This document shows, in pieces, positions 28,077 through 35,202 of a stretch of DNA of 64,000 nucleotides. The stretch comes from Polyangium sp. 6x1 (GTDB lineage Bacteria; Myxococcota_A; Polyangia; Polyangiales; Polyangiaceae): NCBI RefSeq assembly GCF_029946515.1, contig NZ_JARZHH010000040.1:27904-91903 (forward strand), read 5' to 3'. Under the pieces are notes generated by a model. The model saw only the letters and a program-made list of their open reading frames with translations. It ran no database searches and was not told where the DNA came from. The translations under genes and the position numbers were made by a program. Each line of letters starts with the position of its first letter. Positions within the stretch are counted from its first letter, which is position 1.

Positions 28077-28517
28077 TCAGCGCAGCCCGCCCGCCGCGCT
28101 CGTGGCCTCGCGGGCGCGTCGATGCGTCTGCAGCCAGGCGAACGCGGCCGCATGATCGTCGAAGAATGCATAAGGGAACGATAACTCTGGCGAAAGCACC
28201 TTCGTCGCGCGCATGACCATTTCGGTGATCACGCGCAGGCCGAAACCGGCGCCCACGAACGCGAGGGCGTCGTACGCCGGCACGATGCGGGCCCCCGCCG
28301 TCCGCACGCGCTGGGGCACCGTCGTCACGCCCGAGAGGTCCACCAGGGTGAAGAGCTGCCCCTCCCGCTCCTTCACGGCCCGGAGGACGTCGGTGAGGGC
28401 GACGACGTCCTCGGCGTTGGTGAAGGTCCTGAATTCCGCGATGACCACGTCGGGCGCCACGAATTTGACGCAATGGTCACCAAAATGGAGGACCGTGGGC
28501 GGGGAAGCGGGCGCCAT
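28077..28517 (-). CDS. STAS/SpoIIAA-like (DUF3478-type) domain protein, paralog A of three
   Basis: 146 aa starting MAPASPPTVLHFGDHCVKFVAPD, ending ...FFDDHAAAFAWLQ (SpoIIAA-like F-x-F-D...A-x-x-W-L C-terminus). About 35-40% identical to B and C. Confidence 0.6.
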   Translation of the reverse strand: MAPASPPTVLHFGDHCVKFVAPDVVIAEFRTFTNAEDVVALTDVLRAVKEREGQLFTLVDLSGVTTVPQRVRTAGARIVPAYDALAFVGAGFGLRVITEMVMRATKVLSPELSFPYAFFDDHAAAFAWLQTHRRAREATSAAGGLR

Positions 28518-28552
28518 GGAGAGAGGCTTATATCTCGCAGACCTTCGATCGT

Positions 28553-28987
28553 TCAAGCGGCGTCGTTCGAGGGGGCGGCGCGCGGCAGCGATTGCAGCCA
28601 TGCGAGCGCCTCCTCCTTGCGATCGAAGAATGCCTGGGGATAACGCGGCCATTGCGGCTTCAGGATCCGGAGGGCGGCGATGATCATTTCGAGGCCGACC
28701 CGCACGGAGAACGGCGCGCCGACGTAGGCCACGGCCGCGTTCTTGGCGGGGTCTTTGCGGGCGCGGGCGGCCTCCCGGATCTCGCGCGGCAGGCTCTTGA
28801 TGCGGGAGATATCCATCAGCACCTTGCACGGGCCTCGCTCGTTCCCCGTCCGGTACAGGTGATCGAGGACGCGGCTGAAGTCGTCCACCTCGAGGGGAAG
28901 CCCGAACTCCAGGACGAGCAGGTCGGGCGGCGTGAACGTCACGACGTGCGGGCCGATGGTGATGCGCTCGATCGAATCGGTCTTCAT
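28553..28987 (-). CDS. STAS/SpoIIAA-like domain protein, paralog B
   Basis: 144 aa starting MKTDSIERITIGPHVVTFTPPDLLVLEF, ending ...FFDRKEEALAWLQ. Its start codon overlaps the stop of paralog C (ATGA). Confidence 0.6.
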   Translation of the reverse strand: MKTDSIERITIGPHVVTFTPPDLLVLEFGLPLEVDDFSRVLDHLYRTGNERGPCKVLMDISRIKSLPREIREAARARKDPAKNAAVAYVGAPFSVRVGLEMIIAALRILKPQWPRYPQAFFDRKEEALAWLQSLPRAAPSNDAA

Positions 28988-33389: not shown

Positions 33390-33463
33390 GTCCCCTCGTC
33401 CTCCCAAGGCTCAAGCCCGCGCCTCAGGGGAACACGGATCGTGCCAGCCGAAAAGGCCCGCGA

Positions 33464-35202
33464 TTATCGACGCGTCACGCGGAGCCTGCGCCGTTCCGGA
33501 GCGAAGGCGCTCTTTTCTGGAGCGAGCGGGCGGGCGACGCGACGGGTCGAAGGCAGAGGCTTCTCCCCCAGGCTCTCGGCGCGCTTTTTCTTGGCGATGA
33601 GCTCCGCGAGCTCGCCACGCGTGACGCCGAGCCGCGCGGCGGTCTTGTGCGCGAGCGAAGTCTTCGCGACCCCCGACCGGAAGCCATACGTGGGGCGCTC
33701 ATTTTCGTCGAGATCGACTTGCAAAAATTCGAGATGCGGGACGGGCGGCTCCTCTTCGAGGTGCGTGGCCAGCGTGAGGAGGTGCGTGGTCAAGAAGACC
33801 GGCGATTTCAGCTCCGGCAGGAGCGAGATCACGAGCCGCGCGATCTCTTCGCCCTCGGAAGGGTTCGTCCCGGAACAGAGCTCGTCGAGCAGCACGAGCG
33901 AGCCGAACCCGAGCTCCTCGAAGAGGCGGCGGATCCGCAAGAGCTCCATGCCGAGCTGCCCCTCGGGCTGATCGCTGCGCGCCTCCTCGATGAGCGAGAC
34001 GAACATGCCGGCGAGCTGCGGCAAGACCGCGCGCTCGGCCGTGACGAAGAGCCCCGCCTGGCCGAGGAGCTGCGCGAGCCCGATCGACTGGAGCAGCCGC
34101 GTCTTTCCGCCCGAGTTCGGCCCCGTGACGATGACGACGGCGTCTCCGTGCGTGGTCGTGAGGTTCGACGGGACGGGCTTTCCTTTGCCGGCGAGCAGCA
34201 GCGGGTTGTAGAGGCGATCGATCGCGAGCCCGGCCTCGCCCGGGGGCACGAGTTCGGCGAGACAAACGGGCAAACCCTTGTCCCGCGCGAGGTCGGCGAG
34301 CCCGAGGCCGGCGAGGTAAAACTCCATGTCGCCGAGGAGCTGGATGAAGAGCGCGATGGGGCGCTCCATGCCGCTGAAGACGTCGTCGAGCAGGCGCTCG
34401 GTGACCTCGCCCGACGTGACCCGATACCCGCGCAAGAAGAGGCGGAGCCGCGAGAAGAAGCGGGCGATCGCGGAGGTGTGGAGGGGGTTGTCCTGGTTCT
34501 CGCGGATGCGGACGATCTGGAAGGTGCGCAAGGTGCCGTCGATGCCGACGCGGACGCGAAGGTCGACGGTGCCGAGGTGGCGCTCGTGATCGAGGAGCGC
34601 TTCGAGCCGCTGGTACGCCTCGCTCTCCTTCACGGCGAGCCCGAACGCACGGATCCGCGCGACGCCGGAGGTGGCGCCGGCGAAGGCGCCCGCGAGGTCG
34701 TCGACGACCTCTTGCACGGACCGAAGGATTTCGAGGCGTCGATGGGTATCGCCGCCGCGCCGCGACCCGCCCTCGGCGCAGAACGCCGCCCGGAGCGCGA
34801 CGAGGCGCTGGTAGACGCGCTCGAAATCGCGGCGCAGCTCGGGCCCGGAGGCGAGCTCGGCGAGGATGCGCTGGCGGTAGGCGACGACGCGGAGGTCGCT
34901 CGGCGGCTCGGAGATGGCGCGGAGCAGGTACGGCAAGCAAGGCGCGACGGTCCGCCCGCCGATGCGGATGCGCAGGGCGCGGGTGACGAGGTCTTCGAGG
35001 AAGATGTCCCGTTCGAAGTCCTTGCGATCCCACGTCGAGGACGGGAGCGCGGCGGCCGCGAGGACGCGCTCGAAGGCGTCGAGGGAGGTGCCGAGCGCGA
35101 AGGCGAAGGCGAGGGTCTGGTGCAGGTCGTCGAGATCGACGCGGACTTCCGCCTCCTCACAAAGGAGGTCGGGGATAGGGGTGTCCGCAGCAAGAGGGGC
35201 CT
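33464..35202 (-). CDS. MutS-family ATPase (MutS domain V only) with a unique ~350-aa N-terminal region; no Smr domain
   Basis: Walker A GPNSGGKTRLLQ, MutS signature Walker B LVLLDELCSGTNPSEGEEIA, and the TH motif VFLTTHLLTLA. Start is at MTSKAPLA (35202). An alternative start MSVMALRV (35314) would overlap the divergent M23 peptidase gene. Confidence 0.75.

Follow-up and report, generated by a model that had tools for sequence, protein, structure and literature searches.

The 64,000-nucleotide stretch of DNA considered here (below, the window) belongs to the myxobacterium Polyangium sp. 6x1 and has a G+C content (GC) of about 69%. It contains a gene, g2, for a bacterial protein homologous to the major vault protein (MVP), and this gene is the second in a series of six that are read in the same direction. 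An earlier note on this DNA had taken the six genes, g1 to g6, for a candidate vault-like operon, in which MVP is joined by a MutS-V ATPase, a secreted beta protein and three STAS proteins. The comparison of MVP loci given below suggests a different picture, which we regard as fairly probable: g2 is a stand-alone and strongly conserved bacterial MVP, and its neighbours have been brought beside it piecemeal, as a juxtaposition at the level of the genus and not as a conserved functional module. Within the locus, g2 is the core and the only conserved element. The six genes, the two genes that flank them and the lengths of the predicted proteins in amino acids (aa) are as follows.

33464-35203, minus strand: g1, MutS-related ABC-type ATPase with domain V only, 579 aa
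30612-33389, minus strand: g2, bacterial MVP homologue, 925 aa
29577-30575, minus strand: g3, predicted 12-stranded outer-membrane beta-barrel with signal peptide and Pro-rich linker, 332 aa
28984-29424, minus strand: g4, SpoIIAA-like (PF11964/DUF7793) stand-alone STAS-fold protein, first tandem paralog, 146 aa
28553-28987, minus strand: g5, SpoIIAA-like stand-alone protein, second tandem paralog, 144 aa
28077-28517, minus strand: g6, SpoIIAA-like stand-alone protein, third tandem paralog, 146 aa
35304-36107, plus strand: divergent flank gene with a lipoprotein signal and a Peptidase_M23 match (E 1.1e-4) below the gathering threshold
27431-28063, plus strand: convergent flank gene, lipoprotein-like, with a lipobox-like LLLLGGC in its translation

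The evidence that carries this reading is a survey of 80 MVP loci, taken from one genome per species and with at most 10 kb of flanking DNA on each side. The scan by which the loci were found was limited by its search pattern, and the Cytophagales and the cyanobacterial clades lie outside its reach. The loci include a second MVP clade, which is about 38% identical to g2, while members of the other clade are about 60% identical to it. Neighbourhoods were analysed in four ways: by tblastn with the proteins of the window, by unbiased calling of open reading frames (ORFs) followed by all-against-all clustering, by iterated hidden Markov models (HMMs), and by family HMMs applied to six-frame segments. 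All four analyses agree that g1 lies by MVP in nine loci (L001-L009), g3 in five and STAS-like genes in four. Every locus with such a partner gene is from Polyangium, where g1 is found upstream and g3 downstream of MVP. At the 70 MVP loci from outside Polyangium the number with any of the partners (g1, g3 or a STAS-like gene) is zero, when 59 of these loci have at least 3 kb of upstream sequence and 47 have at least 3 kb of downstream sequence. The earlier note had called for a survey of this kind and had named a lack of conserved synteny elsewhere as the outcome that counts against an operon; this is the outcome obtained, in that the synteny is not conserved outside Polyangium.

Within Polyangium the partners follow a graded pattern. 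The arrangement of six genes is kept in the closest species (L001, L003, L006 and L007), and the number of STAS-like copies in these four loci is two, two, three and two, to be compared with three in the window. At L002 g3 is present and the STAS-like genes are absent, and at L004, L008 and L009 both g3 and the STAS-like genes are absent, and MVP is followed by a metallophosphatase gene or directly by a TetR region. Unrelated genes of the flanks, i.e., the M23-like gene, the lipoprotein gene, the TetR gene, a DUF7691 gene and a kinase gene, are equally collinear in the same Polyangium loci. The M23-like gene keeps its order at a variable distance from g1, and the convergent lipoprotein-like gene is also conserved there. 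From this equal collinearity of unrelated flanks follows that the synteny seen in Polyangium is due to recent shared descent, and not to selection that keeps the genes linked, and that it gives no signal of a common function.

When the search is widened to all genes near MVP, no other gene family recurs beside it across the surveyed loci as a conserved partner. The neighbours that are shared by small groups of loci elsewhere are generic: STAND ATPases, ABC ATPases, histidine kinases and response regulators, RlmL-type methyltransferases, ECF sigma factors, sigma-54 activators and OmpA proteins. The largest recurrent neighbour, ORF cluster c1 (21 loci), consists of AAA_16/TPR STAND or kinase paralogs, which are abundant and found at varying positions and on varying strands, and it was rejected as an MVP partner; the occurrence of c1-type relatives at 21 MVP loci probably reflects their abundance in the genomes as a whole. 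The locus is surrounded in the window by three paralogs, all of them about 1300 aa long and composed of Ser/Thr kinase, AAA_16 (STAND) and TPR domains (14555-18565 and 21755-25684 on the plus strand, 37854-41807 on the minus strand). In L018, L019, L022 and L047 a tandem pair of genes for secreted, Cys-rich proteins, each about 570 aa long (cluster c13, without a Pfam match), is found upstream of MVP, and this neighbourhood, which belongs to one small subclade of the Myxococcales, is another lineage-specific MVP neighbourhood. The earlier note had also seen in the locus the logic of encapsulin and microcompartment loci. Shared with these is a presumed self-assembling shell gene beside co-directional genes, but the adjacency of shell and cargo genes across lineages is absent here, there is no cargo-like enzyme, and with no partner at the 70 loci outside Polyangium and no other recurrent family the parallel does not extend further.

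By its sequence, g2 is a true member of the MVP family, with a shoulder, diverged repeats and a cap helix. Against Pfam it gives MVP_shoulder (PF11978) with 55.2 bits at a gathering threshold of 25 (E 8.7e-15, residues 584-692), Vault_3 with 35.2 bits (gathering 28.8, E 1e-8) and Vault_4 with 23.2 bits (gathering 22.9, E 8e-5). By phmmer, residues 324-857 align continuously to residues 274-801 of human and rat MVP (E 1.2e-23) over about 530 residues, and this alignment takes in the repeats R6-R9 and the whole cap helix. An AlphaFold2 (AF2) model was built from an alignment of 13 sequences; its mean predicted local distance difference test score (pLDDT) is 50, and only the shoulder and the cap helix are usable. 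In the model, residues 583-690 form an alpha/beta shoulder (pLDDT 70-86), and residues 693-860 form one unbroken helix of about 168 residues (pLDDT about 70-86), which aligns to the cap-helix region of human MVP. The N-terminal part of about 320 residues, corresponding to the region R1-R5, is weakly recognisable as MVP repeats: when a profile of the first 230 residues is compared with the PDB, the top matches are all MVP chains, and these matches are weak (E 0.03-0.9) and reflect a generic repeat motif. The repeat region also holds a low-complexity insert of about 80 residues, rich in Ala, Pro and Arg (residues about 225-310; about 32460-32715 of the window, minus strand), which varies among orthologues and is missing from the alignment with human MVP. 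Compared with eukaryotic MVP (human and rat; PDB 4V60, 4HL8 and 7PKZ), then, g2 shares the shoulder, the Vault_3 and Vault_4 repeats and the long cap helix and is of similar length (925 aa versus 861-893 aa), and differs by its weak N-terminal repeats and its extra Ala/Pro-rich insert of about 80 residues.

The protein is 100% identical to one from Polyangium sp. 6x1, and its relatives are numerous across many Polyangia-type genomes, with 61-95% identity over the full length. Some genomes carry more than one copy. In two metagenome-assembled genomes (MAGs), Prado144 (L031 and L074) and SRP290908_co2_191 (L060 and L079), there are two MVP genes, one from each clade, whose identities to g2 are about 60% for the one and about 36-38% for the other, and the MAG BF4_93 (L041 and L063) has two copies with 57% and 53% identity to g2. 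This pairing suggests that MVP was duplicated long ago or was transferred within the Myxococcota. MVP genes that are 57-67% identical to g2 are found also in MAGs labelled Planctomycetota (L014, L032, L034, L037, L040 and L061) and Thermoanaerobaculia (L016), which could be due to horizontal transfer or to mis-binned myxobacterial contigs. A crude ORF caller made the MVP ORF 1255 aa long at L040 (10001-12760) and 1526 aa long at L046 (6794-9628); these two could be domain fusions or artefacts of upstream ORF extension.

Eukaryotic MVP yields vault shells when it is expressed alone. By analogy, g2 would probably self-assemble into a cytoplasmic cage with the form of a vault or half-vault, and assembly would be driven by lateral contacts between repeats and by bundling of the cap helices. 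Self-assembly of this kind, if it occurs as proposed, would explain the absence of dedicated operon partners.

Several observations weigh against the view of g2 as a stand-alone cage protein with unrelated neighbours. The gene g1 lies beside MVP in nine of nine Polyangium loci, down to a g1 identity of 67% and despite nearby insertions. The spacing of the genes, with gaps as small as 36, -4 and 35 bp, allows co-transcription, and there is no terminator-like site between the six genes, in a scan that is uninformative at 69% GC. The same scan, over 27.3-36.3 kb, gave zero promoter-like and four terminator-like sites, with no excess over shuffled controls. The N-terminal repeat region of g2 has an AF2 pLDDT below 50, the assembly of a cage is argued from the eukaryotic homologue only, and no report of a bacterial vault particle or operon was found in the literature searched. 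As to the spacing, some of the genes g1-g6 may be co-transcribed in this strain, judged from mere closeness and shared direction, and such co-transcription would by itself not imply a shared function.

The persistent adjacency of g1 leads to the rival that survives best, although we consider it unlikely: a module of two genes, restricted to Polyangium, in which g1 has been recruited to MVP, e.g., for the handling of nucleic-acid or protein cargo, with g3-g6 as bystanders. Here g1 is a MutS-related ATPase, with a Pfam match to MutS_V (PF00488) of 69.7 bits (E 4.2e-19). Its NCBIfam scores are 111.9 bits for mutS2 (cut-off 400) and 53.9 bits for mutS1 (cut-off 641.7), to which comes a partial match to the KamC ATPase; MutS domains I-IV and Smr were not found (Pfam, E <= 0.1). 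It thus has the domain V ATPase in common with MutS2 and the MutS-related ABC ATPases, and differs from the MutS1 and MutS2 repair proteins in that it is without the mismatch-binding, connector, core/clamp and Smr domains and falls far below the equivalog cut-offs. A search of the literature on this MutS-related family found no relevant paper.

In favour of the two-gene module, every one of the nine Polyangium loci, including the more diverged ones that are without g3-g6, has g1 directly upstream of MVP and in the same orientation. The g1 family (3244 matches), however, has orthologues with 60-65% identity in Chondromyces, Byssovorax and Minicystis, i.e., across the Polyangiaceae. The complete genome of Minicystis rosea has its g1 orthologue at 5.78 Mb, which is 1.3 Mb away from MVP at 4.46 Mb, and the surroundings of g1 are cytochrome oxidase, two-component and pentose-phosphate genes; in Byssovorax and other Polyangiaceae g1 is absent from the MVP loci. 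Also in Polyangium the distance between the two genes is variable (about 10-300 bp), and in L009 a gene for a 325-aa protein lies between them. As the M23-like and TetR neighbours are retained as well, the adjacency calls for no more than drift-level collinearity as its explanation. We infer that g1 is an independently conserved ATPase of the Polyangiaceae with a role of its own.

A second rival, likewise improbable in our estimate, accepts the homology of g2 to MVP and replaces the closed vault by a scaffold at the membrane, a ring or dome of the SPFH-like kind. In its fold the MVP shoulder is similar to SPFH/band-7, and a 2019 preprint describes MVP-like proteins from Myxococcales and Cytophagales as similar to band-7; the weak alignment of the N-terminal half of g2 to the eukaryotic repeats R1-R5 and the variable insert, which breaks the repeat region, also speak for this rival. 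The Pfam families returned for g2 are nevertheless MVP_shoulder, Vault_3 and Vault_4 and not Band_7, the alignment to human MVP runs on without interruption through R6-R9 and the cap helix, and the translation shows no apparent transmembrane or signal segment.

The three small genes g4-g6 bear on the question of regulators. Taken singly, their proteins give g4 against DUF7793 at E 6.5e-4, g5 against SpoIIAA-like at E 1.6e-4 and g6 against SpoIIAA-like at E 3e-4, all below threshold. Their mutual identity is 36-49% (49% for g5 and g4, 36% for g6 and g5). A profile of the 12 STAS-like copies from Polyangium found nothing significant in the PDB, and a match, to PDB 3bl4 at E 2.4e-5, came only after the family was widened. 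The wider family consists of stand-alone proteins some 140 aa long and comprises about 727 representative clusters; 38 of 54 relatives match PF11964 (best E 1e-9), and thereby the family joins the SpoIIAA-like/DUF3478 family (PF11964; structural-genomics entries 3BL4 and 2Q3L). PF11964 is a member of the STAS clan. The STAS fold of g4-g6, as predicted from these profiles, is therefore firm at the level of the family only. One relative, P0402, has 578 aa and four tandem copies of the domain, and echoes the tandem triplication of genes in the window.

The likeness of g4-g6 to partner-switch proteins, which the earlier note had raised, stands as far as the fold is concerned and fails for the other two features. 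In the alignment of 54 members the near-invariant columns are G12, R71, G90, F93, R96, A105, F120, A127 and W130, and there is no near-invariant Ser or Thr that could be phosphorylated. At the position that, aligned by eye, we presume to correspond to Ser58 of SpoIIAA, g4-g6 carry S, N and T. Neither an RsbW-type kinase (HATPase_c) nor a PP2C phosphatase was found among the neighbours scanned, from about 14.5 to 45.4 kb. On both counts the family departs from the canonical RsbV/SpoIIAA anti-anti-sigma factors. Orthologues of g4 (85% identity) are found in L001, L006 and L007, those of g5 in L003 and L006 only, which makes this copy variably present, and those of g6 in L001, L003, L006 and L007. 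The three proteins appear to be recently duplicated stand-alone STAS-fold proteins with a role of their own. The thought that a genuine g2 cage has in Polyangium gained lineage-specific accessory factors, most likely g1 and possibly the STAS-fold proteins as regulators, is in our judgement quite unlikely.

For g3, a confident structure model gives a closed, antiparallel outer-membrane beta-barrel of 12 strands, and a signal peptide is present; there is no Pfam match. An outer-membrane barrel belongs to a different compartment of the cell from that of a cytoplasmic shell. The family is rare, with 24 matches. One homologue with 60% identity has genes for an M20 peptidase and for NFACT as its neighbours, and MVP, MutS and STAS genes are all absent from its vicinity; another with 71% identity is directly followed by a convergent gene and has no STAS-like genes. 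Probably g3 is an outer-membrane channel with its own role.

The operon of the earlier note, in which an MVP shell would be loaded or remodelled by the MutS-like nucleoside triphosphatase with the STAS-like proteins and g3 as regulators or partners, is on this evidence very unlikely, for its genes are indeed co-directional and tightly spaced, keep their arrangement in the four closest species and have no terminator-like site between them, but the partners are met with MVP in Polyangium only and at none of the 70 other loci, their pattern there is nested and variable, the equally collinear flanks point to recent shared descent, g3 belongs to the outer membrane, and the g1 and g3 families are found elsewhere without MVP.

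What the note had said of gene identities and layout is in the main borne out. Third-codon-position GC (GC3) was used to pick the real reading frames. The minus strand codes between 28.0 and 35.3 kb, and the six same-direction genes, which span 28077-35203, have GC3 values of 0.85-0.91 (0.88 for g4), marking all six as real genes. The gaps computed from the coordinates, from g1 to g6, are 74, 36, 152, -4 and 35 bp, exactly as the note had them, and the start of g5 overlaps the stop of g4 by 4 bp. The locus begins at 28077 as it had been given, and ends one base further on than the 35202 of the note, with the end of g1 at 35203. The MutS-V ATPase, the MVP, the beta protein with signal peptide and the three STAS-like proteins were all recovered (the STAS assignment at the family level), as were the divergent M23-like gene, at a sub-threshold E of about 1e-4, and the convergent lipoprotein-like gene. 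A plus-strand ORF over g4-g6 (28592-29569) was rejected as spurious, having a GC3 of 0.78 compared with 0.86-0.89 for g4-g6, and also since it is the minus-strand proteins g4-g6 that relatives conserve. The M23-like gene at 35304-36107 is outside any vault system. Beside this lipoprotein gene, at 36112-36705 on the minus strand, is a gene for a DUF7691 protein (E 1.4e-42), and the pair is conserved in Polyangium loci (cluster c7). The convergent gene at 27431-28063 has no match in Pfam or NCBIfam.

The note had also stated that no neighbour is a known vault component, and this is right. The eukaryotic vault consists of MVP together with TEP1, PARP4 and vault RNA. Near g2 there is no counterpart of these: no TROVE or PARP domain was found in the six genes or in the flank genes scanned, and Rfam gave no family at gathering, vault RNA included, over the whole window. 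In a PADLOC search the sole match was of a P-loop to AriA, over 23 residues at E 1.7e-4, and the idea of a defence island was dropped with this as its only match.

Bacterial MVP homologues have been reported before. An in silico account of such homologues in Myxococcales, Cytophagales and Oscillatoriales, which cites Shaik 2013, is given by Sokolskyi 2019 (bioRxiv 10.1101/872010), and the set included a protein of Enhygromyxa salina; a 2023 preprint on phage MVPs repeats the report. Gene neighbourhoods are analysed neither in the 2019 preprint nor in the one on phage MVPs. The protein g2 is of the same family and from the same bacterial order as the earlier homologues and so belongs to an already reported, uncharacterised family. 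New here are the finding that MVP has no conserved neighbourhood across 80 species-level loci, and the two clades of MVP, which sometimes are found in one MAG.

What vaults do has long been an open question, and a bacterial MVP from a myxobacterium that can be cultured could be of use in approaching it by experiment. Were g1 indeed a vault factor peculiar to Polyangium, no accessory protein of a prokaryotic vault would have been known before it, and a cage with accessory factors, if there were one, would be the first case of a prokaryotic vault system that has partners and is genetically tractable, independent of TEP1 and PARP4. The comparative result argues against treating the neighbour genes as vault components, and directs attention to the MVP gene itself; the interest that remains is in whether bacteria make vaults, and not in the neighbourhood. 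Bacterial MVP is strongly conserved, has usually no fixed neighbours and is present sometimes as two divergent paralogs, and these three properties together fit a self-sufficient assembling protein.

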